Shown here piece by piece: positions 14,602-39,097 of a DNA stretch of 64,000 nt. The stretch comes from Gammaproteobacteria bacterium (GTDB lineage: Bacteria > Pseudomonadota > Gammaproteobacteria > Xanthomonadales > Wenzhouxiangellaceae). The notes beneath the pieces are model-generated. The model was given only the letters and a program-made list of their open reading frames with translations, had not been told where the DNA came from and ran no database searches. The stretch spans positions 5,559-69,558 of the forward strand of contig JAJFKY010000020.1 of the NCBI GenBank assembly GCA_021772975.1. Reading direction: 5' to 3'. The position numbers and the translations under genes were made by a program. Within the stretch, counting starts at the first letter, position 1. The number at the start of each line of letters is the position of its first letter.

Positions 14602-14642
14602 AGGCGCCACCTTATACAGCTTTAAATGGAGTGAAAGCGATT

Positions 14643-15651: not shown

Positions 15652-15706
15652 TGAAGCATGGAACCAAAAATTGTTTATCTTCGGGTTGTTGCGGTATGGA
15701 TGCTGA

Positions 15707-21727: not shown

Positions 21728-22858
21728 TTAAGCCGAATAATGCCGGCCCTTCCAGCGGGCGCCGCGCCCTGACCAATGCTGCCAGGCGGACAGCCAGGTC
21801 ATGCCGAGATACAGTGTTGCGGTCAACGGCAACCACAGGCCGCTCAGCCGGTTTAACTGATAAAAACGCATCAGCGGCCAATAGCAGATGGTCATCAGCA
21901 ACAGACACAGTACCGCCGCACCCCGGGTGATCCAGCTATCAATCAGTAAGCCGGTCAGCGGCGCCCAGAAGACAATTATCAGCAATACACTGGTGATCAG
22001 TAATAATCCGATGGAATATCGCAGCTGGGTGTAGGCGGTGCGGGCGACCAACTGTGCGACATCGGGCAGCGTGGCGCTGGCCCTGTGACTGAGCACCCCA
22101 TGGCTCAGGCCGATCCAGATCGGATATCCGGCTGCTTTTATTCGCCCGGCCAGGCTGCAGTCGTCAATGACGGCCGATTTAAGGGCGGTATATTCGCCGC
22201 TGGTTCGCAGGGCATCAGTGGTCAGCAGAATGCAGCCGCCCGCGGCGGCGGCGAAGCGTGACCGCCAGTCATTGAGCTGGCCGTTAACCAGTGCAAACGG
22301 GTAGAGCATTTTGAAGAACCATACATAAGCGGGCAGCAGCAGTGTCTGCCAGAAAGTAGCGGTGGGCAGCAGCGCCATGATCGACACCAGGCTGACGGCA
22401 TGGGTTTGCTGGTGATGCAGCAAACGGGCCAGCATGCCGGGCTGCAGCTGGATATCGGCGTCCAGCTGCAGAATCAAGGGGGTCCGGACCTGCTGCAGAC
22501 CCTGCTGGAGCGCCCACAGTTTTCCCGTCCAGCCAGCCGGTAGCCGGGTCCCATGGATCACTTCAGCGCCGGCTTGTCGGGCCAGTTCGGCGGTGGCATC
22601 CCGGGATTGGTCATCAATAACGATAATCCGGTGCCCGGAGCCCTGAAGTTGCACGGCGTGGATGGTTGCGGCGATATGTTCGGCTTCGTTGCGAGCTGGA
22701 ATCAAGACCGTAATATCACTCAAATCAGGGTGCTGTCGGCTGATCACGGAGTCAGGCTCAAGTCGCTCGCGCACGCTCCAGGGCCGCCAGGGCAGGCTCA
22801 CGATGACGACCCAGATCAGGGCCGAGAGCAGGACGCTGTATTCGATCAATACTGTCAC
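21728..22858 (-). CDS. Family 2 glycosyltransferase, hopanoid-associated HpnB-like
   Basis: N-terminal TM, then VLIPARNEAEHI, VIDDQSRDAT, LPAGWTGKLWAL and DADIQL (DxD), followed by C-terminal TM helices. It is the last gene of the hpn block. Confidence 0.6.
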   Translation of the reverse strand: MTVLIEYSVLLSALIWVVIVSLPWRPWSVRERLEPDSVISRQHPDLSDITVLIPARNEAEHIAATIHAVQLQGSGHRIIVIDDQSRDATAELARQAGAEVIHGTRLPAGWTGKLWALQQGLQQVRTPLILQLDADIQLQPGMLARLLHHQQTHAVSLVSIMALLPTATFWQTLLLPAYVWFFKMLYPFALVNGQLNDWRSRFAAAAGGCILLTTDALRTSGEYTALKSAVIDDCSLAGRIKAAGYPIWIGLSHGVLSHRASATLPDVAQLVARTAYTQLRYSIGLLLITSVLLIIVFWAPLTGLLIDSWITRGAAVLCLLLMTICYWPLMRFYQLNRLSGLWLPLTATLYLGMTWLSAWQHWSGRGARWKGRHYSA

Positions 22859-22936
22859 GGCAGGTTTCAGGCCAGTGATAACTTGAGTCCGTTTATGGAC
22901 CGGGCGGGGCGCCCGGGCACGCTTTAAGCTACTGGG

Positions 22937-24097
22937 TCAGGCGGTTTCCTGGTGCTCGGTCCGGGCCTGGTTACCGGCCGGTTGGTCGGTGCTGACGGTT
23001 ACCGGTATGGCATTTTCGGAGCGGGTCTGGCGGTAGGTAATCGGCAACTCCGGTGCAAACGGGCCATCCAGTCTGGGACCGCGGATACTGGCCATCAGAG
23101 CCTTGATGGGATGTGCGAAGGTATCTTCTACCGCGGTACCTTCATAGCCGCAGTGCGCCATGCAGTTATCGCATTTAGGATTGCGGCCGGTGCCGTAATT
23201 TTCCCATTCGGTGGTTTCAATCAATTCGCGATAGCTGCTGGCGTAGCCTTCATCGACCAGCAGATAACACGGTTTTTGCCAGCCGAAGATATTGTAGGTG
23301 ACATTACTCCAGGGCGTGCACTGGTAGCTCTGATTGCCGGCCAGAAAGTCCAGGTACAGGCTGGAGTGATTCAGTGGCCATTTGTTACCGCCCTGTGCCT
23401 CACGCTGCTTGCCTGCACGGAAAATATCGCGGAATAATTGCTTGGATTTATTGCGTGGCAGAAAAACATCCTGATTGGGCGCAAACTGATAACTGTAGCC
23501 GGGGGACACGGTTATGCCTTCCACCCCAAGCTCAACACAGTAGTCAAAAAACTCAGCCACGCGCCCGGGAATTTCACCATCAAACAGCGTGCAGTTGACG
23601 CTGACCCGGAAACCCTTGTCAATTGCCAGCCGGATAGCGGTGGTGGCTTTTTCAAAGATGCCTTCCTGACAGACGGATTTGTCATGTTCCTCCTGCAGAC
23701 CATCCAGATGGATCGACCAGGTGAAATAGGGGGTGGGTTGGTAGTCATCAATTTTCTTGGCCAGCAAAACAGCGTTGGTGCATAAATACACAAACTTTTT
23801 ACGCGCGATGATGCCGCGCACAATTTCCGGCATCTCTTTATGAATCAACGGTTCACCGCCGGGAATCGATACCACTGGTGCATCGCATTCATCCACGGCA
23901 TTTAAAGCTGCTTCCACACTGATGCGCTTTTGCAGAATATCCTTGGGGTATTCAATCTTGCCGCAGCCGGCACAGGCCAGATTGCATTGGAACAAAGGTT
24001 CCAACATCAATACCAGCGGGTATTTTTTATTCCGCTTTAATTTTTGCGTAATAATATATTTGGCAATCCGAAATTGTTGAATGGCTGGTATGCCCAT
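22937..24097 (-). CDS. hpnH: Adenosyl-hopene transferase (radical SAM)
   Basis: 386 aa. MGIPAIQQFRIAKYIITQKL... with the CNLACAGC radical-SAM cluster motif. It has the typical HpnH N-terminus and length. Confidence 0.88.
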   Translation of the reverse strand: MGIPAIQQFRIAKYIITQKLKRNKKYPLVLMLEPLFQCNLACAGCGKIEYPKDILQKRISVEAALNAVDECDAPVVSIPGGEPLIHKEMPEIVRGIIARKKFVYLCTNAVLLAKKIDDYQPTPYFTWSIHLDGLQEEHDKSVCQEGIFEKATTAIRLAIDKGFRVSVNCTLFDGEIPGRVAEFFDYCVELGVEGITVSPGYSYQFAPNQDVFLPRNKSKQLFRDIFRAGKQREAQGGNKWPLNHSSLYLDFLAGNQSYQCTPWSNVTYNIFGWQKPCYLLVDEGYASSYRELIETTEWENYGTGRNPKCDNCMAHCGYEGTAVEDTFAHPIKALMASIRGPRLDGPFAPELPITYRQTRSENAIPVTVSTDQPAGNQARTEHQETA

Positions 24098-24115
24098 GCT
24101 GATATCCTGTTACTT

Positions 24116-24715
24116 TTAAGCTTGATCCGGCTGCGTATAGCGGCGCAATAAGTCTTGATAATCACTGTTCAACCGGGTCCATTCCATTTTGAACCAGGGT
24201 GTGAAACGCTCGGGGTGTTCGCCCAGTTCGCGATCCAGATCAGTGGTATTAATAAACCGGCAGGCCGCGACTTCGGTTTGATTCGGCTGTGGCTGAGCAG
24301 CGCAGCGGCCCAGGTAAACCCAGCACAATTCGCGCTCCGCGCCGGTTTCATCAAATTGTGCATGATACTGGAATTTATACACGAATTCCGCCTCGGTGCG
24401 CATCCCCAGTTCCTGTTCCAGACGGCGTGACACAGCATAATCCACCGATTCGCCGCGGCGCGGATGGCTGCAGCAGGAGTTCGACCAGTACATTGGCCAG
24501 AGCGGTTTGTCAGCACTGCGCTGCTGTAACAGTAATTCGCCCTGTGGATTGAACACGAACAGTGAAAAGGCCCGGTGCAGAGTGCCTTGGTCGCGATGAC
24601 AGGCGGCTTTATCCAGATGGCCGATGGTGCGGTCATTGTCATCCACCAGGATTAAATCTTCGTCGGGAAAAGACACCACCTCGTTCCTGAGTGCGGCATT
24701 GGCTGTATTACCCAT
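24116..24715 (-). CDS. idi: Isopentenyl-diphosphate delta-isomerase, type 1 (Nudix)
   Basis: HRAFSLFVFN, WSNSCCSHP and the E-rich Nudix region. The ATG at 24715 overlaps the stop of the upstream gene by 8 nt. The ORF-track start at 24796 lies inside the upstream gene. Confidence 0.88.
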   Translation of the reverse strand: MGNTANAALRNEVVSFPDEDLILVDDNDRTIGHLDKAACHRDQGTLHRAFSLFVFNPQGELLLQQRSADKPLWPMYWSNSCCSHPRRGESVDYAVSRRLEQELGMRTEAEFVYKFQYHAQFDETGAERELCWVYLGRCAAQPQPNQTEVAACRFINTTDLDRELGEHPERFTPWFKMEWTRLNSDYQDLLRRYTQPDQA

Positions 24716-26969
24716 TAACAGTGACCTCCATGGCCTGATATCCGGCGTTATTGAGTGCTTCAATAACAGTTTGCTGCGTGTCTGGACACAATGCAATAAA
24801 TGCGCCGCCGCCGCCGCCGCCGGTCACTTTGGCGCCCAGCGCACCGTTCTGACGTGCGATCTGTACCATTTCCTCGATTTCCCAGCAGGATACCTGCAGT
24901 GCATTCAACAGACCCTGGCAAACATTCATCAGTTCACCCAGTTGCTGCCAGTCGCCGTTCCGCAAGGCATCCCGGCCCTGCAGTGTCAGGGCATCGATGC
25001 CATGGAACATGCGCTGATAAATAGCCGGGTTTTTCTGCCGCGCGGCGGCTACCCGGGCAACCATTTTGGCGGTCAGGCTTTCCACTCCGCTGTAACCGAT
25101 AACCAGCGGCAGTGGTGCGCCCAGCGACAGCTTTTCCATCAGCTCCGGCCTGCCTTTGAGCGCTTTGCGGAACAGCATCGGATGGCCGTAGGTGGCCATG
25201 GTATTGTCGACGCCGGACGGGCTGCCGTGGGCAACTTTTTCACACTCAAAGGCCAGCGCGTTGACTTCCTCATCACTGAGCTTCAACTGATAATGCTGAT
25301 CCAGCGCGCGGATAATGGCGACCGCCACTGCCGCTGAGCTGCCCAGTCCCACCGCTCGCGGCACGCTCGGGAAAATCTCGATCTTCATCGGCTGGTTGAT
25401 TAATTCCAGCTGCTCCAGAATCAGGGCAATCGGTTTCTCGAATGAATGCCGCTGCTCGGGCCGCATATGCAAACGCTGCTGTGCGCCCCAGCGGGGAATG
25501 ATGATATCGATACCGGCTTCGGTGCTGGTAATTTTTGCCTGAATGGCAAGTGGTACCGGCACCGCCATGGCATGGCTGCCGTAGACCACCGCGTGCTCGC
25601 CGAGCAGAATCACTTTGCCGTGTCCAACCGCCAGCTGTTCGCTGTCGACGATTGCTTCGGCTGACGGATTAACGGTGCCGGCCTGCTGCCTTACGTCATC
25701 CAGAATTTCACGCGCTTTCCAGATTTTGATATCGCCGCTTTCAATCAGACGGTCAACCACCGTATCGAACAGATTCGCGGGTGCGCCAGCCGCCATGGCG
25801 ACGCTGCGGGCATGCAGGGTCATGTGGCCCTGCTGGATACCGCTGGTGACCAGCGCGCGCAGGGCCGAGAAATTCTGCGCCAGACCGACCGCGCCCATCA
25901 GCTCGGCCAGCTCACGCGCTGAGTCCACTTTCAGCATGCGATGGTTGATCATCACCGACTGATTGGATTGTAGGGGACCACCCACGGTGCCGACTTTCAT
26001 GGGGATTTCCAGTTCGCCCACCAGGTTGCCGTCGTTATCCTTGAACCAGCGGGTCAGCGAGCTGTATTGGCCGCTGCGCGCGGCGTAGGCATGCGCGGCT
26101 GCTTCGATCGCGCGCCAGTCGTTGCCGGTCGCCAGCGCTACCGCGTCGACACCGTTCATGATGCCTTTGTTGTGCGTGGCCGCCCGATAGGGATCAACCG
26201 TGGCCAGATCATTGGCCAGAATGATGCCGTCGCGGACCTGTTCGCCATCAAAGCCTTTACCGGCCAGATGTGCCACCGGATAAACCACTTTGGCCTTGAC
26301 CACCGCCCGGTCCGTCAGGTTGGACAGAATCCGCAGAAATACCTTGCCGCCGGTGATGCTTTCCACCAGTGAGGCAACGCCTTCACACATGGTATTGACC
26401 AGGTTGGCGCCCATCGCGTCGCAGGTATTGACCAGCAGATGAATCACCAGCATGTTGGCGCCGGTGGATGGTGAGCGGTGCAGATGGACTTCCAGACCTT
26501 TGGCGCCGCCGCCGCGTGCCACCATTTTAGGATGCAGGCTATTGGCCAGGTTGATGATCTCGTCACTGCGCTGCAGGATGATCGAGCGGGTCTTGCTGGG
26601 GTGGGTGATATCCACCACCTGAATCTGGCCGATCAGAATGGGTTCGGTACTCTCCGCGGTAAAACCACCGGTGTTCAGTGCCAGTTTGGCAGCCGAACTG
26701 ATCGCCGCCACAATCGACGGTTCTTCCACCGCCATCGGCACAATGTAAGGTTTACCGTTGACCACAAAATTCAGACCGATCCCCATCGGTATGCCCAGCA
26801 CACCAATGACATTTTCGATCATTTTGTCAGCCGTGGCCGGGTCCAGCAGATGCTCACCACTGCTGAGCAGACGGTAATCTTCGTTGGACAGCAAGCCGCG
26901 CTCATGCACCGCGCGGACACGATCTTTGAGGCTTAAACGATAAAAACTGGGAATCCGAGATTGTTCCAT
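24708..26969 (-). CDS. Bifunctional class II HMG-CoA reductase / mevalonate kinase (single-ORF fusion)
   Basis: N-terminal ~430 aa carry ENVIG, CDAMGANLVN, KVGTVGG and QQGHMTLHAR (class II HMGR). C-terminal ~310 aa carry GKVILLGEHAVVYG, PRAVGLGSSAAVAVA and KVTGGGGGGAFIAL (GHMP mevalonate kinase). The frame is continuous. The likely start is the ATG at 26969 (MEQSRIP). Confidence 0.88.
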   Translation of the reverse strand: MEQSRIPSFYRLSLKDRVRAVHERGLLSNEDYRLLSSGEHLLDPATADKMIENVIGVLGIPMGIGLNFVVNGKPYIVPMAVEEPSIVAAISSAAKLALNTGGFTAESTEPILIGQIQVVDITHPSKTRSIILQRSDEIINLANSLHPKMVARGGGAKGLEVHLHRSPSTGANMLVIHLLVNTCDAMGANLVNTMCEGVASLVESITGGKVFLRILSNLTDRAVVKAKVVYPVAHLAGKGFDGEQVRDGIILANDLATVDPYRAATHNKGIMNGVDAVALATGNDWRAIEAAAHAYAARSGQYSSLTRWFKDNDGNLVGELEIPMKVGTVGGPLQSNQSVMINHRMLKVDSARELAELMGAVGLAQNFSALRALVTSGIQQGHMTLHARSVAMAAGAPANLFDTVVDRLIESGDIKIWKAREILDDVRQQAGTVNPSAEAIVDSEQLAVGHGKVILLGEHAVVYGSHAMAVPVPLAIQAKITSTEAGIDIIIPRWGAQQRLHMRPEQRHSFEKPIALILEQLELINQPMKIEIFPSVPRAVGLGSSAAVAVAIIRALDQHYQLKLSDEEVNALAFECEKVAHGSPSGVDNTMATYGHPMLFRKALKGRPELMEKLSLGAPLPLVIGYSGVESLTAKMVARVAAARQKNPAIYQRMFHGIDALTLQGRDALRNGDWQQLGELMNVCQGLLNALQVSCWEIEEMVQIARQNGALGAKVTGGGGGGAFIALCPDTQQTVIEALNNAGYQAMEVTVNG

Positions 26970-27058
26970 AACTACCTTTACCGTGGCATGGATAGTTTGC
27001 TTACAGACCAAAAGTCCGGTTCAGCGTATTTGTTATCCAATGCCTGTCTACAGTTCAT

Positions 27059-28129
27059 CTAGGGCTCATTGGGAAATGATTGATCCGTAGTCATTACTAC
27101 GCCTTGTTCCGCCGGGGACAATTCTAACAGACCATAGCCGGCTGCTTGTACCCGCCGGCCGAAATCAGCCAGCGCGTGGGTATCAATGGCGGCGGCGATA
27201 GCGATATCGCCACCGCCGGCGCCGGAGGGTTTGAATGCGACCCCATAATCCGACGCCAGTTGCGCCAGCCGCCGATGGGCGTCGGTGTAGACCGGTGCAT
27301 CAGCAGCGGTGCCCAGTGCCTGCATGGCCTGGCCATAAGCCGTCAGGCATTCCAGCAATTGCGTGGAATCGCCTTGCCGCACCGCGCTGAGACCGCGTTC
27401 TGATAGTTGGCCAAGCTGTTGCAGGTGGGTTGCGTAGCGGCGCGGATGGCTGGCTTTAAAGTGATCCATACGGCTTAGAAATACCCGGGTCGACGCTGAC
27501 TGTCCCAACCATATCCAGATGCACTCAACTTCGCCGGGCCAGCTTAAGGCCTGCACCCTGCAATCATGGCCGTCGATCCGATAGCTGCTCAGGCCGCCCC
27601 ACAGGCTGGCGGCGATATCCGCGCCGCTGCCGCGTCCATCCTGCAGATTACGATGCAACTGCACCAGCAGTGGCAGCCAGCGCCGCCGGTCAAAGTTCTG
27701 ACCCGGATGCCGGAGTTGAAACCAGGCAGCCGCCAGCGCCACGGTTAAGGCGGCGCTTGAGCCGAGTCCGGTTTTATCACCCGCGGGCGTGAAAAAATCG
27801 TGGGTGTCCAGACTTAATGACCAGCTTTGCTGTTGGTCGGCTGCCGCCGGTTGCCAGGCACCCAGTGCATGCATCAATGGGGCGACAAAAGGCAGGCGTT
27901 GATTATTACTGTCGTGTTGCCATTGAAAGCGGCCCTCCGCATCGAAATAAAAAGCCACCGGTTCGTTCACCAGGGGCGGAGCAGTGAGCTGGTAATCCGG
28001 TGCCGGGCAAAGCTGAATACGGGCCTGTTTATCCACTGCCTGCACCATCGCAGGATAGCCTTCCAGAACCGCGTATTCGCCCAGAATCAGGGCTTTGCCG
28101 GGCGCGCTGACCTGAATGGACGGTATCAT
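27059..28129 (-). CDS. mvaK2: Phosphomevalonate kinase (GHMP/ERG8 type)
   Basis: SAPGKALILGEYAVLEG, TGLGSSAALTVALAAA, KPSGAGGGDIAIA. There is an ATGA start/stop overlap with the upstream decarboxylase. Confidence 0.82.
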   Translation of the reverse strand: MIPSIQVSAPGKALILGEYAVLEGYPAMVQAVDKQARIQLCPAPDYQLTAPPLVNEPVAFYFDAEGRFQWQHDSNNQRLPFVAPLMHALGAWQPAAADQQQSWSLSLDTHDFFTPAGDKTGLGSSAALTVALAAAWFQLRHPGQNFDRRRWLPLLVQLHRNLQDGRGSGADIAASLWGGLSSYRIDGHDCRVQALSWPGEVECIWIWLGQSASTRVFLSRMDHFKASHPRRYATHLQQLGQLSERGLSAVRQGDSTQLLECLTAYGQAMQALGTAADAPVYTDAHRRLAQLASDYGVAFKPSGAGGGDIAIAAAIDTHALADFGRRVQAAGYGLLELSPAEQGVVMTTDQSFPNEP

Positions 28130-29130
28130 TCCGAGGCCGGCCTCAGGCGCACGCCCTGACCCAGTCCGCAGTGGATGATATCGATCACCCCGGGAACCTG
28201 CCGCAATTGCTCGGCCACCTGAGCCTCAGCGGCTGCGGTACAGACAGCTTTAACCTGCGGTCCGGCATCCATGGTGAAACACACTTCCAGACCGGCGGCG
28301 CGCCATGCGCGAATGCCGTGCAGGGCCGCTACGCTGGCGGCATTCCAATACAGTACACCCGGCTGGGCCGCCAGCGCTGAGGCGTGCATTTTCAGCGTGC
28401 TGAATTCGGTAACGCTGGCCAGCGCGTCAAAATCCCGCCGTGCTATCGCCTCACGGGCAGTGTTCAGATCGGCTTCCGCACCCGCCACCCAGGCCGGGTA
28501 ATAGGGGGAGGTCTCGGTGGTCAACTGCATGCCGTCGGTGGAGCTGATTTTTTTGCTGCCGGCATCGGTGACCGCAATCAGAACCTTCAAATCCCAGTAG
28601 TCTGGCGGATACAGCGGATGAGCGATGCAGTCTCGGCCATCGCTGCGCTGCCCATGCGCCATCTCTACGATGCCACCAAAAATCGAGCGCGCGGCAGAAC
28701 CCGAGCCACGCCGTGCCAGCAGCGATAACCCGGCGCTGTCGATATCAGCCTGCAGTGCGCTGCTAGTGGCCAGTGCCAGGGCCGCAAAGCCGGACGCCGA
28801 GGAGGCCAGCCCGGCGGCAGTGGGAAAATTATTGTGGCTGCTGATATATGCATACGGACGCTGTTGCCCGGCGTTATGCAGATAGGCAAACACCCGATCC
28901 AGAAAGACGCTGATACGCTCCGCCGCGACTGCCTCAGCAGGCTGCTGATTTAATTCAATCTGATCCCCTTTCAGGCCGGTATCAAAACTGACCGAGGTGG
29001 TGGTGGTCAAGGCATCCAGGGTCAGCGAGAGTGAACCGGTGGCGGGCAGATTAAGCCGCTTATCACGCTTACCCCAGTATTTGATCAGCGCGATATTGGC
29101 GTGCGCAATGGCAGTGGCGGAAGAATTAAT
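28126..29130 (-). CDS. mvaD: Diphosphomevalonate decarboxylase
   Basis: NFPTAAGLASSASGFAALA and RRGSGSAARS motifs. The conserved N-terminal block ANIALIKYWGKRD lies upstream of the ORF-track TTG start (29010). The 5' end is set at an ATT codon 6 nt after an AAGGAA SD-like sequence; this 5' end is uncertain. Confidence 0.8.
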   Translation of the reverse strand: MNSSATAIAHANIALIKYWGKRDKRLNLPATGSLSLTLDALTTTTSVSFDTGLKGDQIELNQQPAEAVAAERISVFLDRVFAYLHNAGQQRPYAYISSHNNFPTAAGLASSASGFAALALATSSALQADIDSAGLSLLARRGSGSAARSIFGGIVEMAHGQRSDGRDCIAHPLYPPDYWDLKVLIAVTDAGSKKISSTDGMQLTTETSPYYPAWVAGAEADLNTAREAIARRDFDALASVTEFSTLKMHASALAAQPGVLYWNAASVAALHGIRAWRAAGLEVCFTMDAGPQVKAVCTAAAEAQVAEQLRQVPGVIDIIHCGLGQGVRLRPASE

Positions 29131-29148
29131 GACAGGTTCCTTGCTGGT

Positions 29149-30402
29149 TCAGGCAGCGACCGAGGCAGGCCGGTGTTCCAGGAAGCGCTGCCGGTAGTCC
29201 TGGAAATGTTCGTTGATGTGCTCCGCCTGCAGCCCATAGTCAGTCAGTACGTGCCGATGCCGGCCGTAGCGGTGTTTGGGATTGTCGCGCAGCCAGGTAT
29301 GCATGGCGCGTTCGCAGGGCGCCTGCCAGTCCAGTTTAAAATGCGCATAAATCTCTCGCAGGGTTTGTATGGGGGCGGTGGTAAATTGATGATAATCAAC
29401 GTCAAAAATACGCTCGGCCGGAATTTTCTGCTGATCACGAGCCTGCAAAGCCAGCGCCAGCGCCTGTGACCAGCGGGTGATGACTTCCGGTCCGATTTGC
29501 CGGGTTGCATGCCGGTCACTGAAGGCCTGGCGCAGATGGCGGGTCAGGCTGGCCAGTGAGGACATCACTTCGGTGGGTTCCCGGTGGGTCTGGATAATAC
29601 AAGCATCCGGATAGGTTTCCAGCAGCGCCGGTAAGCCAAACAGATGCGCCGGCGCTTTTAATACCCAGCGCCGCACCGGCGTGCCCCATTGCAGATATTG
29701 CAGGAAACGCCGGTGATATTGATAGGCCGTGCGGCGGTCTTGCTGTTCCAGCCACTGCTGGTAGCGCGGCACGTAGTGGGTGGTCTGAAACTGATAGCTG
29801 TGCAAAGCATGCGCGGTGATCACCACGCATTCCTGCGGCAGATGGCCGGCCACCGCATGGATGCGCTGGAAACCGGGCGCCAAGCCGTCCAGCCAGCGTA
29901 GTTGAGCATTGACTTTGCGCTGGGTGCTGCGGTGCCGCGGCTGGAAGGCATGACTGGCCAGCACCGGCTGCATGGTTTCCCAGGTCAGCGGTGCGCGGTG
30001 CCGGTGGTCCTGTGCCAACAGGTTGTGCAGCATACTGGTGCCGGTGCGCGGCAGCCCTACCACAAAAATGGGCCGGTCGACCGGTTGCGCGGTGATATCG
30101 GGGCTGGCCGCGATAGCCTGCTCAATGCCCAGGCGATGCCGCAATAAACGCAATAAATCAGAACGGGCAGCGATGCGCCCGGGCAGATGCAGCCGGGCAG
30201 CATTCTCCAGGTCGGCACACAGCAACCCCAGTGGCTCCCGGGGGTCCGGGGCTCCCCATTGATCATAATTCGCCAGCGCGGTGGCGCTGGTTAGTAGTCG
30301 CTGGCTATCCAGGCGTGGCCCGTCCAGCCCGAAGAGCTTCAATAGTCGGCCGGCCTGGACGGCGGTTTTAATTGTCTGACGGCGTAAATGGCGTTGCATC
30401 AT
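29149..30402 (-). CDS. PAPS-dependent sulfotransferase family protein
   Basis: 417 aa. 5'-PSB loop FVVGLPRTGTSMLHNLL and a 3'-PB-like RRWVLKAPAHL. It is embedded between hpnA and mvaD. Confidence 0.75.
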   Translation of the reverse strand: MMQRHLRRQTIKTAVQAGRLLKLFGLDGPRLDSQRLLTSATALANYDQWGAPDPREPLGLLCADLENAARLHLPGRIAARSDLLRLLRHRLGIEQAIAASPDITAQPVDRPIFVVGLPRTGTSMLHNLLAQDHRHRAPLTWETMQPVLASHAFQPRHRSTQRKVNAQLRWLDGLAPGFQRIHAVAGHLPQECVVITAHALHSYQFQTTHYVPRYQQWLEQQDRRTAYQYHRRFLQYLQWGTPVRRWVLKAPAHLFGLPALLETYPDACIIQTHREPTEVMSSLASLTRHLRQAFSDRHATRQIGPEVITRWSQALALALQARDQQKIPAERIFDVDYHQFTTAPIQTLREIYAHFKLDWQAPCERAMHTWLRDNPKHRYGRHRHVLTDYGLQAEHINEHFQDYRQRFLEHRPASVAA

Positions 30403-30454
30403 GCACTCCCTGTAAGCTCTTGCTCCGGCTTAATGCTGTTTTGCAGTTGCGCGT

Positions 30455-31471
30455 TCATTCAAAGTAACCATGTTGCCGGTACCAGTCCAGTGCATCACTT
30501 AATGCCAGCTGGGCCGGACGAGGCTGATAACCCAGTTCATCAATAGCACGCTGGCAACTGAAAAACATGGGCTTGCGCGACAATTTTACCCCGGTGACGG
30601 TCATCAAGGGTTCCCGGCGAGTGACCCAGCGTGCCCAGGCTTCACTGACATGTGCCAGTGGCAGGACCAGGTTGGCGGGCAGGCGGATGACGGGTGGCTT
30701 GCGCTGCAGCAGACCGGCCAGACGCTGCAATAGCTCGCGCAGCGTCAGGTTTTCGCTGCCCAGAATATATTGTCTGCCGATCTGGCCATGCGTCAGGGCC
30801 AGTAGATGACCGTCCGCGACATCATCGACATGCACCACATTCAGGCCGGTATCTACAAATGCCGGGACTTTGCCACACGCCGCCGCCACGATCAGGCGGC
30901 CAGTGGGTGTGGGCTTAAGATCGCCCGGCCCGATCGGGGTACTGGGATGCACGATCACCGCCGGCAGTTGCTGCTCGGTGATCATCGCCCGGACGCATTG
31001 CTGGGCGGCATATTTGGTTTGTTTATAAGCACCGATCAGATCGGCTTGATTGACCGGCGTGGTTTCATCACTGGGGCTGCCGTCACGCTGCAGGCCGATG
31101 GCGGCGACGGTGCTGGTGTAAATCACTTTTTTTACGCCGGCCTGCAGACAGGCCTGCATCAATGCCCGTGTGCCTGCCACATTAACAGCCTGCATTGTGT
31201 CCGGGTCCGGAACCCATAAACGGTAATCAGCGGCCACATGAAACACATAATCACAACCTTTCACCGCGGCGTGTAACGAAGCGTGCTGCAGCAGGTCACC
31301 CACGGCATGTTCAACCGTCAGGCCGTTGAGGTTGGTAGGTTCGGTATTGGCTCTGCGCAGCACCCTTACCCGGTGTCCGGCAGCCAGTAACCGGCGGACT
31401 ACGGCGGCACCGACAAAACCGGTGGCGCCGGTTACCAGACTGAGTGGCTGATCAGACACGCGAACCTCCAT
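30455..31471 (-). CDS. hpnA: Hopanoid-associated NAD-dependent epimerase/dehydratase-like protein
   Basis: Rossmann motif LVTGATGFVGAAVVRRL, YxxxK (YKQTKYAAQ), 338 aa. The start overlaps the hpnN stop. Confidence 0.75.
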   Translation of the reverse strand: MEVRVSDQPLSLVTGATGFVGAAVVRRLLAAGHRVRVLRRANTEPTNLNGLTVEHAVGDLLQHASLHAAVKGCDYVFHVAADYRLWVPDPDTMQAVNVAGTRALMQACLQAGVKKVIYTSTVAAIGLQRDGSPSDETTPVNQADLIGAYKQTKYAAQQCVRAMITEQQLPAVIVHPSTPIGPGDLKPTPTGRLIVAAACGKVPAFVDTGLNVVHVDDVADGHLLALTHGQIGRQYILGSENLTLRELLQRLAGLLQRKPPVIRLPANLVLPLAHVSEAWARWVTRREPLMTVTGVKLSRKPMFFSCQRAIDELGYQPRPAQLALSDALDWYRQHGYFE

Positions 31472-34094
31472 CGGTCCGGGGCAGCAGAGCCGGCAGCACC
31501 AGCAGTGTTGCCAGCACCATCAGAGTCAGTCCCAGCGCCAGCAGCAGACCCATGCTGGCGGTGCCGGTGTGGGTGGAAAACATCAGATTGCCGAAGCTCA
31601 GCACCGTGGTGAGTGCGCCGAACACAATACCGCGTGCGGTGGTGGTGCGCAGCACATTGCCTTCGCGAACGTGCACCGCGGCCGGCATATCACCGCTGCG
31701 ATGGCGATAGACCAGATGCACCCCGTTATCCACCGCCACCCCCAGTAATAACGGCAGCGCGACGACATTGGCAAAATTCAGCGGTACCCCCAGCAGCACC
31801 AGCATGGCGCCGGTGACCAGCCCGCCCAGCAGCAACGGCACCATCACCCGGGCACTGTCAGCGACGCTGCGCAGGATAATCAACAGCACCAGCGTGATGC
31901 CGGCCAGCGCCAGCAGCAACGCGGTACGCAAGGCTGCGCTGATTGCCTGGCCGGAGCGCAATTGCAACACCGGCATGCCGGTGACCTGGGGCGCGACTGC
32001 ACGCACCTGCTCGATCAATTCGCTGACATCGGTAAAACTGTTGGTATCCACGGCAGGGAAAATCTGTACGATGTGCGTGCCTGCGTCACTGACCCAGCGG
32101 TCGTGTATCTGGGCGGGCAGATCCTTGACGGTAACGTACTGGTCCACGCTCAAAGCCTGCTGCATGCGCTGCAGCGTAGCGGGCAGCAGCCCGACCAGGG
32201 CACGATTGAGTTTGCTATAAGCAGCTGTGTCAGGCTGGCTGTCCTGAAATTGGCTCAGCCTGCCGGCCAGTTGCCGGGCGGCGTCCGAATCCAGACTCGG
32301 CAGCTCCGTGCTGAGTTGATCAAGCGCAGTTTTCAGTCGCTGAATGTCCGGTTCCGGCAAGTTTTCCGGGATGTTCAGCAAATCCAGCCCGGTGGTCCAG
32401 CGCAGGTCCTCCAACAGCAGCAGTTTTTCATCCTGGTCAGCGGGGACCAGATCCAGTACTGAAATAGCACGTGCTACGCCGGGCAGTTCACGCAACCGGG
32501 TACTGATCCGCGCTGCGCTGGCGGCATCATCGGCCAGCACCTGCAGATTGCGATGGCCGGTGGAGCGGCTCTCCAGCAGCTGGCGCAGCGTGGCAACTGA
32601 TTCTGAACGGCCATCGCGCAGATTCAGAGGGTCACTGTCGAACGGTAACTGCCAGGCCAGCACCAGGCTGGCCAGCGCCACCAGCAAAGCGGCAATGCGC
32701 ACCCGGTTGCGATAAATCAACGGACCGTCCAGCCAGGCTGTGGGAATTGACAGCGATGGGCGTTTCGGCTTTATGTCGGGGGCGGGAATCACCGCGAGCA
32801 GGGCCGGCAACAGGCTGTAACTGATTATGAAAGTGATGAACATCGCTACGCCGGCAATCAGACCCAGCTCAGCCACGCCGCGAAAAGCGGTGGGTATAAA
32901 GGCGAAAAAGCCGATCGCGGTGGTCACGGCGCTCAATGCCAGCGCGCCGGCCAGCAGGCGGGCACTGGACATGATGGCGCTGAGCTTGTCCGGCTGCTGG
33001 ACCAGCTGCTCGCGATAACGCAGCATGAAGTGGATGCCATAATTCACCCCAAGCCCGATATACAGCACCGTAAAGGCGATTGAAATCAGATTGATACGAC
33101 CCACCGCCCAGGCGGCAAAACCCAGAGTCAGGGCAAAACCGACCGTCAATGACAGTAATGCGACAGCGACCAGACGCACCGAGCGCAAACCCCACAGCAT
33201 TACCAGAGCAACCAGGATCAGCGCCAGAATGCCCGCTTGTCTGGCGCCGGTCAGTGCGCTCAACAACTCTTCATGCTCCAGTGCGACCGGTCCGGTCAGC
33301 AGCATACGCACTGCCTGATCGGTGCCCAGGTTCAATTCCTGGCGGATGCTATCAGCGGCCTGCATCACCTCCCGGCCTGCCATAACCTGGTCGAAGTTCA
33401 GGCGCGGTTCGACGATCAGTGTTTCGCGAAATAGGGGGCTGGCTTGAGCCACTCCCGGGGTCTGAAAAAACAACTGCTCCCAGGACAGCGGGCGTGACTG
33501 AGCGCTCAGCAGCTGATCGATGGTGTGCTCCAGGGCCGGCAGGATGCTGTCCAGCCCGACCGCCTGTGTCTGGCTGTATGCGCTGGCTTCGCTGAGCAGT
33601 TCCAGTAAAGTGGCCGCTTGCAGATCTTCGCTCAGCCGACTTAAAAAGGGCTGCGCGGTGCTCAGCCGGTCGCCCAGCTGGTTGAGTTGTTGAGGGGATA
33701 AAAACAGCAGTCCGTTGCGTTGAAAATAAGCCTCACCGGCCAGCCAGTCGACCGCGGCAAAGTGCTGAGGATCGCGCAGCAACCGGCTTTTGACCTGTTC
33801 GGCCGCGCGGCGCGCCTGTTCCGGAGTGGGGCCTTCCACTACCACCAGCAGGTTATTGGCCAGGGTGGGAAACTCGCGCCGGAAACGATCAAAGGTCTGC
33901 CGGAACGGCAGCCTGGCGTCGAGCATGTCGGCGGTATCGGTATTGACCCCCAGATGACCGGCGGTGTAGTGCAGGGAGCCGGCGCTGAGCAGCAGCAGAG
34001 CGACGATGATCAACCACGGATAACCAACCACCCAACCCAGCCAGCGGGTGATGGCGCGGTGCAGCAGATGGGTGTGATCGGGTGGCGGGGGCAT
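31452..34094 (-). CDS. hpnN: Hopanoid-associated RND/MMPL-type transporter
   Basis: 880 aa with two blocks of 6 TM helices and two large periplasmic loops. It sits in hpn context. Confidence 0.8.
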   Translation of the reverse strand: MPPPPDHTHLLHRAITRWLGWVVGYPWLIIVALLLLSAGSLHYTAGHLGVNTDTADMLDARLPFRQTFDRFRREFPTLANNLLVVVEGPTPEQARRAAEQVKSRLLRDPQHFAAVDWLAGEAYFQRNGLLFLSPQQLNQLGDRLSTAQPFLSRLSEDLQAATLLELLSEASAYSQTQAVGLDSILPALEHTIDQLLSAQSRPLSWEQLFFQTPGVAQASPLFRETLIVEPRLNFDQVMAGREVMQAADSIRQELNLGTDQAVRMLLTGPVALEHEELLSALTGARQAGILALILVALVMLWGLRSVRLVAVALLSLTVGFALTLGFAAWAVGRINLISIAFTVLYIGLGVNYGIHFMLRYREQLVQQPDKLSAIMSSARLLAGALALSAVTTAIGFFAFIPTAFRGVAELGLIAGVAMFITFIISYSLLPALLAVIPAPDIKPKRPSLSIPTAWLDGPLIYRNRVRIAALLVALASLVLAWQLPFDSDPLNLRDGRSESVATLRQLLESRSTGHRNLQVLADDAASAARISTRLRELPGVARAISVLDLVPADQDEKLLLLEDLRWTTGLDLLNIPENLPEPDIQRLKTALDQLSTELPSLDSDAARQLAGRLSQFQDSQPDTAAYSKLNRALVGLLPATLQRMQQALSVDQYVTVKDLPAQIHDRWVSDAGTHIVQIFPAVDTNSFTDVSELIEQVRAVAPQVTGMPVLQLRSGQAISAALRTALLLALAGITLVLLIILRSVADSARVMVPLLLGGLVTGAMLVLLGVPLNFANVVALPLLLGVAVDNGVHLVYRHRSGDMPAAVHVREGNVLRTTTARGIVFGALTTVLSFGNLMFSTHTGTASMGLLLALGLTLMVLATLLVLPALLPRTDGGSRV

Positions 34095-34119
34095 CAGTGG
34101 TTGCAGCGCTATAACGGGT

Positions 34120-34767
34120 TTATTCTTCCGCCATCCGCTGGGTTTGGGTCTGGATGTACTCCACTACAGCGTCCAGTCCTCCGGTCTCGAACAGCTTACT
34201 GTATTGCGAGCGTTTCAGTGCCAGATCACTGACCCCGCGGGTGGTGATATTGACGATCCGCCACTCGCCATGCTGTCGCAGCAGCAGGTAATCAAATGCA
34301 ATTCGCTCACCTTTGCCGGTAATCAGTTCATGTCGGACCTGAGCCCGGTTTTCGCCCGGTTGCGCAGCGCTGACCGGGGCAAAGCGCTCGTTGTTGAAAG
34401 TTGTAAAACGCGCTGCGTAGTTGGCCACCGTCAGGGCGCTGAAAGCCGCGCTGAAGCGGGCCTGTTCAGAGGCGCCGAACTCATTCCAGCGGCTGCCAAA
34501 CAAAAACCGCCCCATGCGGGGAAAATTAAATGCGCGTGCGATCACCGGCTGCAGGCGTTCGCTGCGGCCGGTATGGTTTAGCAGGTCGGTCTGCATACTG
34601 TTTAACAGGCTCTGCTCGAGGCTGTCCACCACCGCTTCAGGAGCTGCGTCAGCGGCGGCTGGCAGGCTTTGGGGCGGGGTCGGATTGTCGGCCTGGGCGA
34701 TGCCGGGCGGACTCAGATACAGCACCGTGGTGAGGCTGAAAATCAGGATAATGGCTGGCCTACGCAT
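34120..34767 (-). CDS. MlaC/Ttg2D-family periplasmic lipid-binding protein (HpnM-like)
   Basis: Signal peptide, 215 aa, with FNFPRMGRFLFGSRW and the FDYLLRQHGEWRIVNI pattern of toluene-tolerance Ttg2D proteins. It is adjacent to hpnN. Confidence 0.7.
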   Translation of the reverse strand: MRRPAIILIFSLTTVLYLSPPGIAQADNPTPPQSLPAAADAAPEAVVDSLEQSLLNSMQTDLLNHTGRSERLQPVIARAFNFPRMGRFLFGSRWNEFGASEQARFSAAFSALTVANYAARFTTFNNERFAPVSAAQPGENRAQVRHELITGKGERIAFDYLLLRQHGEWRIVNITTRGVSDLALKRSQYSKLFETGGLDAVVEYIQTQTQRMAEE

Positions 34768-34793
34768 GCTTTTGATCCTTACTGTTGTTTCGG

Positions 34794-35477
34794 TTAGTGA
34801 GGCAGGTCACGCAGCACTGCCGCCGCCGTCAGCAAACGCTGGCGCGCCAGCCGTTGCGCTCTGCCCAGAGCATAGACGTCACGCAGCCGGGCAGGTTCAC
34901 GCGCCAGCCAGCCGGCCAGCTTTAGCTTATGCGGCTGGGCAAAAGCATCGCAGCAGTCGATCAGACCACCGGGCAAAACCTGTTCGGCCGAGTCCAGTAC
35001 CGCCCGGATCACGATCGCAGGCACATCCTGCAGTGCGGCATTTCGCAGTACGGCGGCGCTTTCCATATCAGCGCTGGCGGCACCGGTAGCTGCCGCCAGC
35101 GCCGCTTTGTCTGAACGCGATGCCAACACCGCATGTGTTTCGGCCAGGGGCGCATCACAAACCTCAGTCTGGCATTGATTGAACCGTTGCCGGACACTGG
35201 TCAGTTTTGGCTGATCGCATACCAGGTTCTCACCATCGCTGGCTATCACCTGCGACGGCAGCAGCAAGCTGCCGCCGCGCAGGTCCACTCGCAGACCCGC
35301 CGCGCAGCCAAAACTGATCAGAGTGCGCGCACCCTGGGCCAGCAATGCCTTAGCCCCGGCCCCGGCCGCCTCAGCTCCCATGCCGGTCAGTTGCCAGCGA
35401 ATCCCGGTTGATCGTTTCAATACCCGTTGTAAACACTGTGCCTCCCAGCGCAGCGCCACCACTATTCCAATGCTCAT
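34794..35477 (-). CDS. hpnG: Hopanoid-associated nucleosidase/phosphorylase
   Basis: PNP/UDP family (MSIGIVVALRWEA ... ADMESAAV). The ATG at 35477 avoids overlap with shc. Confidence 0.75.
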   Translation of the reverse strand: MSIGIVVALRWEAQCLQRVLKRSTGIRWQLTGMGAEAAGAGAKALLAQGARTLISFGCAAGLRVDLRGGSLLLPSQVIASDGENLVCDQPKLTSVRQRFNQCQTEVCDAPLAETHAVLASRSDKAALAAATGAASADMESAAVLRNAALQDVPAIVIRAVLDSAEQVLPGGLIDCCDAFAQPHKLKLAGWLAREPARLRDVYALGRAQRLARQRLLTAAAVLRDLPH

Positions 35478-35499
35478 GTCCGCCCGGCGCAGTACGAAT

Positions 35500-37476: not shown

Positions 37477-37500
37477 GGTCTTATTTTGTCTGGTTATGCC

Positions 37501-38655
37501 TCAGGCGTGCATGGATTGTATTTTGACTGAGTTGCTACTGTCATCGGGATATTCAAAGCTCGGGTCGCAATCATCGTAGTTGGGTACCGGACGCTCAAAG
37601 TTGCTGATTTCGGTTATCGGTAAATGTTGACCGGCCTTGCTGAATAACCATTTCAGCAGTTTGTTGCTGCGCCCGAACAGTTTGCTCAGCACAATCACCT
37701 GCCTGACCCGGCGGCGGCTGACTTTGACCTCCTGACCACTGCGAAAGTGCGGCAGCTGGTGGATGTTTTTCAAGGTCAGAATGGCCAGCCCCAAAGCCCA
37801 CAGGCAAAACTTACGGATGCCGCCCTCTTTACGCGGCAGCATCAAGGTATAACGCAGCGCATTTTGAATATGTCCATGGGTGATGCCGATCAAGACATTC
37901 AGCGCCTGCTGAAAGTCAGCTGACTGATGCTGCGTTTCCAGTTGTGCCAGGGACACGCCGTGCTGGCGGAAAGTGGCCTGCGGCCACCAGCATACGCCGC
38001 GGCTGCGATCATCCCATACATCTTTGAGAATATTGGTCATCTGCAGCGCCTGTCCGAACGAGGGCGCCAGCTGCATCAACTGCTCACGTTGCCGTTCAAT
38101 GGCCGGGTCGTGGTGGCAGAACAGGTCGGTAAGCATTTCGCCCACCACGCCGGCGACGTAGTAGCAGTAAAAATCCAGATCACGCTGTGCCGCCAGACCG
38201 CTGCTGCAGGCGCTGCGCTGATAATGATTCATGCCGCGTCCCATCACCTGCACACAGCGGTATAGAGCCTGTTGCTGACCGCCCGACAGGCTGCGGGTAA
38301 CCGCAATGACCTGATGGGTGTTGGCAATCAACTCGCGTTCCGCCGCGAGTGTCTCCGGGGCCACCAGCGGTGCCACGCTATGGGCAAACTGGCGGGCATC
38401 GGAATGACCGGCGATGACCTCGATAAACTGTTGCTGATACTGAATTTTTTGCTGGGTATTCCAGGCGGCGTCATCTTCGATCGTATCGGCGATGCGGCAC
38501 AACAGGTAGGCGTTGGCCACCGCGATGTAGAGATCCTTGGGAAGCTGTGGAATCGTCAACGCAAAAGTGCGTGACACCGAAGCCAGGATATTTTCCTGAT
38601 AGGCCAGCGCGGAGGCCAGTGTGTCCTGAGCGGATACTGAAAGCGTTGCTTGCAA
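37501..38655 (-). CDS. sqs: Squalene synthase (single-enzyme, eukaryote-like farnesyl-diphosphate farnesyltransferase)
   Basis: SVSRTFALTIPQLP, LLCRIADTIEDD, YCYYVAGVVGEML and NILKDVWDD motifs. The start is uncertain: TTG at 38655 after AGGGAG, or ATG at 38829, which would add a non-conserved 58-aa extension. Confidence 0.82.
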   Translation of the reverse strand: MQATLSVSAQDTLASALAYQENILASVSRTFALTIPQLPKDLYIAVANAYLLCRIADTIEDDAAWNTQQKIQYQQQFIEVIAGHSDARQFAHSVAPLVAPETLAAERELIANTHQVIAVTRSLSGGQQQALYRCVQVMGRGMNHYQRSACSSGLAAQRDLDFYCYYVAGVVGEMLTDLFCHHDPAIERQREQLMQLAPSFGQALQMTNILKDVWDDRSRGVCWWPQATFRQHGVSLAQLETQHQSADFQQALNVLIGITHGHIQNALRYTLMLPRKEGGIRKFCLWALGLAILTLKNIHQLPHFRSGQEVKVSRRRVRQVIVLSKLFGRSNKLLKWLFSKAGQHLPITEISNFERPVPNYDDCDPSFEYPDDSSNSVKIQSMHA

Positions 38656-39097
38656 GATTGTGTGCTCCCTGGTTAGCCAATAACCGGCTTGATCACAGCC
38701 ACTATACCCGGCTGAGTCCTGGTTGGCCGCAATTGACTGCCGGCAGGGCAGTCGGCGAACCGCCGCGACAACGGGCTGGCGGCCTGCATCATCATTACAA
38801 TAGGTGTGCTTGAGTAACCCATAAATCAACCAAAGACTACTGTAGTCATCTGTCCAGGCATCCCTGCACCCACCTGCTGATGTTCCTCATCCGGTGTTTA
38901 GCCGCGTAGTATAATCGCTTGTTAAAATGTAACCCAAACCTCTGGTTATGCACGGTTGCCCGCCGGCTCTTTGCCAGCCGTAACAGCTGGCCTGTACCAA
39001 ACGGTTTCCGGGCAGGTTTCGCGCGGCGTGGAGGCAATATTTGATTAGCGATACCGGCGTCATTCACGCTGGTCAAAGTGACGGAATCTGGAGCGAT

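Follow-up and report, generated by a model that had tools for sequence, protein, structure and literature searches.

A class II HMG-CoA reductase and a mevalonate kinase joined in one open reading frame, probably a bifunctional enzyme of isoprenoid biosynthesis by the mevalonate route

Introduction

On the reverse strand of the window, by which we mean the whole 64-kb stretch of DNA analysed, one reading frame carries the signatures of both a class II HMG-CoA reductase (HMGR) and a mevalonate kinase (MK). This raises the questions of whether the locus encodes a single enzyme for two steps of the mevalonate pathway, in which direction such an enzyme would work, and what is gained by joining its halves. 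An earlier note on this DNA had proposed a natural fusion, in a single polypeptide, of a class II HMGR with a complete MK, and both the family models and the catalytic residues bear this out. The reading that we favor, with considerable confidence, is that the protein is truly bifunctional and serves isoprenoid biosynthesis by the mevalonate route, its two modules being independent and held together by a flexible tether.

Two complete enzymes in one open reading frame

The fused ORF is composed of the following elements.

24708..26969, minus strand: whole ORF, putative bifunctional HMG-CoA reductase / mevalonate kinase, uninterrupted, 753 aa, stop codon at 24708-24710
25680..26969, minus strand: class II HMG-CoA reductase domain with its C-terminal flap, aa 1-430, from the alignment to 1qax
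26721-26723 (E83), 26166-26168 (K268), 26118-26120 (D284) and 25824-25826 (H382), minus strand: HMGR catalytic residues, from the alignment to Pseudomonas mevalonii
25629..25679, minus strand: inter-domain linker, aa 431-447, 17 aa, GTVNPSAEAIVDSEQLA, of low pLDDT and variable in relatives
24711..25628, minus strand: mevalonate kinase (GHMP) domain, aa 448-753, from TIGR00549, PDB and Foldseek matches
25614-25616 (K452), 25335-25337 (S545), 25239-25241 (E577) and 25206-25208 (D588), minus strand: MK key residues, invariant in alignment A1

The ORF starts at the ATG at 26969, which is preceded six nucleotides upstream by AAAGG; the N-terminus so obtained agrees with that of its nearest homologues (MEQSRIP), and the product would be a polypeptide of about 80 kDa. 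Extended as far as it will go, the frame would begin at a TTG at 27011. The HMGR is N-terminal and the MK C-terminal, with a short linker between them. Family-model searches found no thiolase domain in the ORF, and the HMGR begins at residue 1.

The reductase half is matched by Pfam HMG-CoA_red (PF00368) over aa 14-387 (E 2e-106) and by NCBIfam TIGR00532 (424 bits, cutoff 260). Its alignment with the P. mevalonii HMGR (1qax, 428 residues, E 2e-119) runs from residue 4 to residue 426 of the latter and covers the flap, and Foldseek superposes it on the closed P. mevalonii complex with a TM of 0.93 over 425 residues. The motifs quoted in the earlier note are all found, i.e. ENVIG (52-56), DAMGAN (184-189), GTVGG (327-331) and GHMTLH (381-386). 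Residues E83, K268, D284 and H382 align to Glu83, Lys267, Asp283 and His381 of the P. mevalonii enzyme; E83, K268 and D284 do not vary in an alignment of 19 diverse fusions, in which H382 is conserved to at least 90%.

The kinase half is matched by Pfam GHMP_kinases_N and GHMP_kinases_C (aa 517-744) and by NCBIfam TIGR00549, mevalonate kinase (aa 450-727, 255 bits against a cutoff of 163). Its best PDB match is the Leishmania major MK 2hfs (E 9e-48), and Foldseek gives TM values of 0.80-0.86 against the L. major and Methanosarcina mazei MKs. The GHMP kinase had been described as complete with three motifs, and these, GKVILLGEH (K452), GLGSSAA (S545) and KVTGGGGGG, are present together with E577 and SGVD (D588), all of them invariant in alignment A1. 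We take K452, S545, E577 and D588 to correspond to K13, S146, E193 and D204 of rat MK.

Distribution of the fusion

How widespread the fusion is had been left to a database search, and the answer is that it is widespread. At least 51 species representatives in GTDB, belonging to several phyla, carry HMGR and MK in a single ORF, as do many metagenomes, and cultured carriers include Wenzhouxiangella, Dyella, Woeseia and Cryobacterium psychrotolerans; the fusion spans about 15 protein clusters at 50% identity, and the architecture is found in more than 120 database clusters. Gammaproteobacteria, Acidobacteriota, Calditrichota and Actinomycetota are among the phyla and classes that hold the gene cassette, in some cases within hopanoid clusters. 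The 19 aligned fusions are only 33-92% identical, yet their catalytic residues vary little or not at all in either half.

In a neighbor-joining tree, which is rough (BLOSUM distances, midpoint root), the fused proteins are scattered, and the loci on deep branches (L052 and L068) differ in gene order. The tree is taken only as a hint that the fusion arose more than once. Some lineages show an extension to HMGR-MK-IDI (IDI being IPP isomerase), or an additional GHMP-kinase, PMK-like domain in front (PMK being phosphomevalonate kinase).

The linker and the transfer of mevalonate

The linker string given in the earlier note, QQAGTVNPSAEAIVDSEQ, is indeed present, at aa 428-445, but its upper nucleotide bound was about 9 nt off, the true span being 25635-25688. 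In the AF2 model, which is of a monomer, pLDDT falls below 50 for aa 431-444, and the pTM is 0.55. Across 77 fusions the linker measures 6-61 aa (median 16), is unconserved, and is rich in A, E, P, G and S. The two catalytic modules are thus best modelled as independent folds on a flexible, unconserved tether that is predicted to be disordered, and since the tether is flexible, channelling of mevalonate is plausible only as an effect of proximity or stoichiometry.

An alternative is that the protein assembles into an oligomer of fixed arrangement, such as a dimeric or hexameric HMGR core carrying MK dimers, within which mevalonate would go straight from one active site to the other; true substrate channelling would then be the selected function. 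Class II HMGRs and MKs are both oligomeric and the model is of a monomer, so that a defined quaternary assembly with real channelling may exist; the two steps are moreover consecutive, the fusion is kept in many lineages at identities as low as about 35% and probably had more than one origin, and some relatives have taken up IDI as well. Against this, a linker of 6-61 aa that is unconserved and predicted disordered, together with a pTM that indicates no confident domain-domain interface, favors proximity and stoichiometry over a structured channel. A structured substrate tunnel is unlikely, and we consider the channelling assembly as a whole unlikely too.

A broader proposal would place the HMGR-MK fusion, in some lineages with IDI or the PMK-like domain, at the centre of an MVD-PMK-HMGR/MK-IDI cassette (MVD being diphosphomevalonate decarboxylase) that moves horizontally, has taken the place of the MEP pathway in several lineages of Gammaproteobacteria and has travelled between phyla; the fused enzyme would then be a defined multi-enzyme particle truly channelling mevalonate. 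Taken in full, this is a doubtful speculation, but if it were true, the synthetic scaffolds of isoprenoid engineering would have a natural counterpart.

Gene context and direction of the reaction

The fusion lies within a series of isoprenoid and hopanoid genes, of which the following are relevant here.

24116..24715, minus strand: IPP isomerase type 1 (IDI), downstream partner, NF002995, 176 bits (cutoff 127)
27059..28129, minus strand: GHMP kinase, putative phosphomevalonate kinase (PMK), upstream partner, best NCBIfam match TIGR01220 PMK, 110 bits
28126..29130, minus strand: diphosphomevalonate decarboxylase (MVD), upstream partner, start codon uncertain, TIGR01240, 220 bits (cutoff 171)
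21728..38829, minus strand: co-directional isoprenoid/hopanoid supercluster, from Pfam and NCBIfam matches
39041-40000, plus strand: FPP synthase, divergent to the supercluster, from profile matches

The operon order is MVD-PMK-[HMGR-MK]-IDI, and the IDI gene, from its ATG on, shares 8 nt with the 3' end of the fusion ORF. The PMK assignment is putative, its 110 bits lying under the family cutoff of 166 (TIGR01220), and no canonical start was found 5' of the conserved N-terminal motif of the MVD gene, whose start region is at 29010-29148. The supercluster comprises SQS, SHC, HpnG-like, MlaC-like, HpnN, HpnA, sulfotransferase, MVD, PMK, HMGR-MK, IDI, HpnH and HpnB, and its gene order is shared with a 91%-identical relative (L001), with Rhodanobacteraceae and with other loci. 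For the comparison across 53 fused loci (51 GTDB species representatives, the window and L001), neighboring genes were labelled by reference proteins; single-linkage clustering of ORFs was dropped, as it drew in antisense shadow ORFs, the loci being GC-rich. The order MVD>PMK>fusion holds in 37 of the 53 loci and fusion>IDI in 38, while hopanoid genes lie within 10 kb of the fusion in only 17.

Within the 64-kb window, tblastn and Pfam scans of the larger ORFs found neither an HMG-CoA synthase nor a thiolase. Among the window ORFs scanned there was no MEP-pathway gene, nor an HMG-CoA lyase or another partner for catabolism, and the operon holds no separate HMGR or MK gene. The fusion carriers Wenzhouxiangella, Woeseia and Dyella caseinilytica were scored MEV-only in a 2026 survey, hence the mevalonate pathway is probably the sole isoprenoid route in those genera. 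The idea of a mevalonate cassette reserved for hopanoids in a two-pathway host was also considered; it is weakened by that scoring and by the 17 of 53 loci with hopanoid genes nearby.

The cofactor helix of the reductase half lies as follows.

26514..26534, minus strand: cofactor helix H146-P-K148-M-V-A-R152, opposite P. mevalonii D146-Q-L-L-N-S-L, from the alignment

According to the published rule, NADH enzymes carry Dx(V/L)xxxL in this helix and NADPH enzymes (H/Y)xSxxxR (PMC13488460). The window helix does not match the NADH-type motif, whereas two of the three defining positions of the NADPH motif fit (His at position 1 and Arg at position 7), position 3 being Lys rather than Ser. With its HxKxxxR it resembles the NADPH and not the NADH motif, and NADPH is, on this basis, probably the cofactor of the reductase half.

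In the biosynthetic reading, the N-terminal class II HMGR would convert HMG-CoA to mevalonate, probably with NADPH, and the C-terminal MK would use ATP to turn that mevalonate into mevalonate-5-phosphate. The adjoining PMK, MVD and IDI would complete the route to IPP and DMAPP, which may then be used by FPP synthase, by squalene synthase and by the enzymes for hopanoids encoded in the same cluster. The likeliest benefits of the fusion would be the obligatory 1:1 co-expression and co-localisation of both activities, and the instant irreversible capture of mevalonate from a reversible reductase, i.e. a kinetic or proximity pull.

The automatic name of the protein implies the reverse, namely a catabolic reductase half that oxidises mevalonate to HMG-CoA as in P. 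mevalonii. The best family model is TIGR00532, "degradative", and the nearest solved structure, about 50% identical, belongs to P. mevalonii, whose enzyme is catabolic. TIGR00532, however, spans class II enzymes generally, Asp146 of NADH specificity is replaced by His, Leu148 by Lys and Leu152 by Arg, the scanned ORFs hold no lyase, and a fused mevalonate-consuming kinase within a PMK/MVD/IDI operon would make no sense for catabolism. We therefore regard catabolism as very improbable and, given the NADPH-like helix and the gene context, assign the protein a biosynthetic role contrary to its name.

It is hardly credible for the window protein that one half lacks catalytic activity and has a regulatory or scaffolding part to play instead. 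Such degeneration of one half does occur in the family, since in one divergent relative (P0128) the signature motifs of HMGR are gone and the MK half is kept, but all catalytic residues of both halves are intact here and in nearly all relatives, and the operon has no separate gene for HMGR or MK. An assembly or sequencing artefact merging two adjacent genes, which a one-base error could produce given that HMGR and MK are neighboring separate genes in Virgibacillus, Oceanobacillus and Myxococcus, is effectively refuted, because the identical 753-aa protein is present in independent public assemblies, the best 120 database matches (65-91% identical) all share the three-domain architecture, and the fusion is in frame, its linker free of stops, in every one of 51 species representatives; the assembly error that had been a concern at the outset can thus be set aside.

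Annotation and significance

The earlier note had named thiolase-HMGR (Enterococcus MvaE) as the precedent and no characterised HMGR-MK fusion, and a full-text literature search, including PMC13001223, PMC6107057, PMC5462960 and PMC13488460, likewise found no description of one. Hoshino and Gaucher (2018) mention fused partners only to say that those sequences had been trimmed. Nor was a solved structure spanning both domains found; hence HMGR-MK should be considered an uncharacterised yet widespread architecture, not peculiar to the window genome. Being common, the fusion is already in the databases, although under an incomplete name: automatic pipelines write only "HMG-CoA reductase, degradative", which renders the MK half invisible and implies the wrong direction. 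Such mislabelling can distort pathway-completeness surveys of mevalonate-pathway bacteria, and the distribution of the cassette bears on how the pathway spread among bacteria.

The fusion represents a natural one-to-one coupling of a reversible, rate-controlling reductase to the first irreversible kinase, and thus a ready-made system for asking if proximity alone raises flux and limits mevalonate loss. Engineering of the mevalonate pathway leans on artificial fusions and scaffolds, for which the natural family offers evolved designs with linkers of 6-61 aa and a reductase probably of the NADPH type.

Comparison with known systems

The closest analogy is MvaE of Enterococcus faecalis, a characterised enzyme in which a class II HMGR, homologous to the one described here (PDB 7m1z and 7m3h, E ~1e-88), is also joined to another mevalonate-pathway enzyme in one polypeptide. 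The partner in MvaE is an N-terminal acetoacetyl-CoA thiolase, so that the non-consecutive steps 1 and 3 are combined, whereas in the window protein it is a C-terminal MK placed directly after the mobile flap domain, which brings together the consecutive steps 3 and 4. MvaA of P. mevalonii shares about 50% identity over 428 residues, as well as the catalytic Glu/Lys/Asp/His, the fold and the flap; it is a stand-alone, NAD(H)-dependent enzyme of mevalonate catabolism with the helix D146-x-L148-x-x-x-L152, in contrast to the H146-x-K148-x-x-x-R152, the fused MK and the biosynthetic operon found here. The kinase half resembles stand-alone MKs (L. major 2hfs, Staphylococcus aureus 2x7i, M. mazei 4hac and 6mde) in its full-length fold, three GHMP motifs and catalytic Lys/Ser/Glu/Asp, but lacks their free N-terminus because it is tethered to the HMGR.

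IspDF of the MEP pathway is a common natural fusion of two isoprenoid-precursor enzymes (PMC13001223), although it belongs to the other pathway, combines steps that are not consecutive, and has folds unrelated to those described here. Finally, in Virgibacillus, Oceanobacillus, Paucisalibacillus and Myxococcus sp. 1LA (L053, L054, L056, L058 and L069) mvaA and mvk are adjacent and in the same order, followed by MVD and PMK. These loci keep separate ORFs in the order HMGR>MK>MVD>PMK, while the main fused clade has MVD>PMK>[HMGR-MK]>IDI; the adjacent genes in Bacillaceae and Myxococcus are the expected unfused state.

Domain organization of the fusion protein

An uninterrupted 753-aa ORF on the minus strand, running from ATG 26969 to a stop at 24708, joins a class II HMG-CoA reductase (HMGR) to a mevalonate kinase (MK). 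The longest possible start is an in-frame TTG at 27011, upstream of ATG 26969; the latter has AAAGG positioned six nt 5' of it and opens the N-terminus MEQSRIP, common to the fusion and its nearest homologues. The parts of the ORF are:

25680-26969, minus strand, HMGR domain
25629-25679, minus strand, inter-domain linker
24711-25628, minus strand, MK domain

Pfam places HMG-CoA_red at aa 14-387 (E 2e-106) and GHMP_kinases_N plus GHMP_kinases_C at aa 517-744, and two NCBIfam equivalogs score beyond their curated cutoffs, TIGR00532 (class II HMGR) with 424 bits against 260 and TIGR00549 (mevalonate kinase, aa 450-727) with 255 against 163. Of the 428 residues in Pseudomonas mevalonii HMGR, the N-terminal part covers 4-426 (E 2e-119), an alignment that takes in the C-terminal flap with the catalytic histidine and sets the catalytic E83, K267, D283 and H381 of that enzyme opposite E83, K268, D284 and H382. 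The C-terminal part matches solved mevalonate kinases along its entire length (top match Leishmania major MK, E 9e-48); its GHMP motifs are intact, as are the Lys, Ser, Glu and Asp residues K452, S545, E577 and D588. A sequence check found every motif listed in the earlier note where expected, and the linker string quoted there at nt 25635-25688, near the coordinates it had been given.

Aligning 19 fusions that share 33-92% identity with the window protein shows E83, K268, D284, K452, S545, E577 and D588 to be invariant and H382 to be conserved in at least 90%. The linker is the sole poorly conserved segment: in 77 fusions it measures 6-61 aa (median 16) and has no conserved sequence, with Ala, Glu, Pro, Gly and Ser abundant. 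The exception is P0128, a divergent relative of 763 aa that has lost the HMGR signature motifs (DAREPA replaces DAMGAN, and the flap motif GHM..H is missing) and has an intact MK half; its HMGR half is possibly a pseudo-enzyme domain.

An AlphaFold2 model, with 19 diverse fusions as input alignment, shows a mean pLDDT of 85.9, about 90 in each domain and below 50 at aa 431-444, and a pTM of just 0.55; hence, it is read as two well-folded modules whose mutual orientation is not confident. Foldseek matches the HMGR half to P. mevalonii HMGR (TM 0.93 over 425 residues) and the MK half to the L. major and Methanosarcina mazei kinases (TM 0.80-0.86), and no PDB entry spanning both halves was found in PDB searches that included Foldseek.

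Distribution of the fusion

The exact window protein is already present, through NCBI and Logan assemblies, in a collection of 5.8 billion proteins. The best 120 matches there are 65-91% identical, carry the same three Pfam domains in every case and measure 744-780 aa, except for one 1131-aa protein; their sources are Wenzhouxiangella, Dyella, Rhodanobacter, Nevskia, Arenicellales and Litchfieldella, together with many MAGs. When 1.84 billion cluster representatives were searched exhaustively with HMMER, about 15 clusters at 50% identity aligned end-to-end with the fusion, down to 35% identity. A GTDB scan, with one genome per species and reading frames verified by script, returned at least 80 loci, and at least 51 of them hold HMGR and MK matches in one ORF. 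Those listed include, within the Gammaproteobacteria, Nevskia, Rhodanobacteraceae, Woeseiaceae, Pseudomonadales and Salinisphaera, and elsewhere Acidobacteriota, Calditrichaceae, Balneolaceae, Nakamurella, Methylomirabilota, Ignavibacteriaceae and the isolate Cryobacterium psychrotolerans. In Virgibacillus, Oceanobacillus, Paucisalibacillus and Myxococcus sp. 1LA, HMGR and MK are separate adjoining genes, which is the expected unfused state.

An assembly artefact is ruled out by the identical protein in NCBI and Logan assemblies and by the same-ORF fusion at at least 51 loci. The natural fusion in a single polypeptide proposed in the earlier note is borne out by this shared architecture, and its spread, which that note had left to be checked, proves wide: the fusion is neither rare nor specific to the window genome.

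Operon context

The fusion lies in a co-directional minus-strand run of, in order, squalene synthase, squalene-hopene cyclase, HpnG-like, MlaC-like, HpnN, HpnA, sulfotransferase, diphosphomevalonate decarboxylase (MVD), a phosphomevalonate kinase (PMK)-like GHMP kinase, the fusion, type 1 IPP isomerase (IDI), HpnH and HpnB, with a divergently oriented FPP synthase upstream. Individual genes are:

27059-28129, minus strand, presumed PMK, a divergent GHMP kinase
29149-30402, minus strand, Sulfotransfer_3 family gene, between HpnA and MVD
37501-38829, minus strand, SQS_PSY enzyme, 442 aa

At the MVD-PMK junction the stop of the first gene overlaps the start of the second, and the IDI ATG overlaps the fusion ORF end by 8 nt (24708-24715). 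Gene order is identical in L001, a relative with 91% identity that lies on a MAG contig of 3.6 Mb. Among 53 fused loci (51 GTDB representatives, the window and L001), MVD-PMK-fusion order occurs in 37 and fusion-IDI order in 38; 17 have hopanoid genes no more than 10 kb away, and 12 have an HMG-CoA synthase gene nearby, Woeseiaceae in particular. Neither HMG-CoA synthase nor thiolase was found in the 64-kb window by tblastn and a Pfam scan of the larger ORFs.

The PMK is assigned chiefly from operon position, falling under the curated cutoff of every PMK model (best TIGR01220, 110 bits against 166). For MVD, no ATG, GTG or TTG separates the stop codon of the sulfotransferase (29149-29151) from the conserved N-terminal motif ANIALIKYWGKRD (region 29010-29148, minus strand). 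The first canonical start, TTG 29010, would remove this motif; positions 29128-29130 hold an in-frame ATT, and the L001 MVD has a normal ATG. Either the window gene uses a non-canonical start or its sequence contains an error. The Sulfotransfer_3 gene has no NCBIfam match, is also found near the cluster in L001, L015, L029 and L038, and its product might modify a hopanoid or other lipid. The three-gene HpnCDE route is common in hopanoid producers; no such trio was seen in the window's hopanoid cluster, and squalene appears to be made by the single SQS_PSY enzyme.

Cofactor and pathway role

The automatic name "degradative" arises because TIGR00532 carries it; the model is named for the P. mevalonii enzyme, yet spans class II HMGRs generally. 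The fusion's cofactor helix, H146-P-K148-M-V-A-R152, aligns opposite D146-Q-L148-L-N-S-L152 of P. mevalonii and lacks the NADH-determining Asp. According to the rule of Miller & Kung, restated in 2026, NADH enzymes carry Dx(V/L)xxxL and NADPH enzymes (H/Y)xSxxxR (PMC13488460); His at position 1 and Arg at position 7 fit the latter, whereas position 3 is Lys, not Ser. NADPH is the probable cofactor. The helix, the fusion to a mevalonate-consuming enzyme, the PMK/MVD/IDI operon and the lack of an HMG-CoA lyase gene among the window ORFs scanned together argue for a biosynthetic role. Since Wenzhouxiangella, Woeseia and Dyella caseinilytica are scored MEV-only in a survey table (PMC13001223), the fusion-containing pathway is, in these at least, probably the sole isoprenoid route and not a hopanoid-dedicated accessory.

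Origin and further fusions

A rough tree of the HMGR domains, built by neighbour joining, groups 61 fused sequences in a single clade with just three unfused sequences inside. Phyla are intermixed within it, which suggests horizontal transfer of the mevalonate cassette. A few further fused sequences fall here and there among unfused ones (L052/L068/P0138; P0136; P0139; P0145; P0257), and L052 and L068 show the order fusion-MVD-PMK, resembling unfused Bacillaceae and Myxococcus operons; hence, the fusion probably arose more than once.

Triple HMGR-MK-IDI fusions with a C-terminal NUDIX domain occur in P0122 and P0123 (928-952 aa) and at L044:9472-12303; the 8-nt overlap in the window is the kind of junction from which a small indel would yield them. 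The 1131-aa protein, P0056, has about 390 extra N-terminal aa with a second GHMP_kinases_N match before HMGR-MK, and may be a PMK-HMGR-MK fusion. Other class II HMGR fusions, either real ORFs or gene-calling merges, were seen in P0165 (1453 aa), P0173, P0176 and P0169, with the architectures HMGR-polyprenyl synthase-squalene/phytoene synthase, HMGR-SQS-epimerase (HpnA-like) and HMGR-polyprenyl synthase.

Proposed mechanism

Beyond the architecture, intact catalytic residues, operon and distribution, which are demonstrated, the protein would perform the third and fourth steps of the mevalonate pathway, with a flexible tether joining the kinase to the end of the mobile HMGR flap; given this flexibility, the modules would work as independent enzymes kept close. 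Likely gains are a fixed 1:1 stoichiometry and a kinase that would quickly and irreversibly trap what the reversible reductase makes. True channelling of mevalonate through a fixed HMGR-MK interface is conceivable, as both parent enzymes are oligomeric, but it gets no support from the low pTM or from the linker, which is variable and predicted to be disordered, and seems improbable.

Additional features of the window

50309-51862, minus strand, 517-aa ORF with a weak RuBisCO_large match (E 1e-19, RuBisCO-like protein) and C-terminal Cupin_2

This architecture is unusual. Positions 10001-16000 have a G+C of 0.43-0.49, against 0.55-0.61 elsewhere, and hold an alginate-export porin, a CHASE-domain histidine kinase, a response regulator and an ORF (14598-15566) with no Pfam match; the region may be horizontally acquired.

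Comparison with known systems

Enzymes that act consecutively in a pathway have often become fused in evolution. Full-text searching found no description of an HMGR-MK fusion; Hoshino & Gaucher (2018) remark only that fused partners were trimmed from their alignments. NCBIfam has no full-length model for it. HMGR-MK is an apparently uncharacterised bifunctional fusion of pathway neighbours, real, conserved and useful, widespread and masked by an incomplete database name. The nearest characterised precedent is Enterococcus faecalis MvaE (thiolase-HMGR), which differs in having another partner, at the opposite terminus, and in joining non-consecutive steps.
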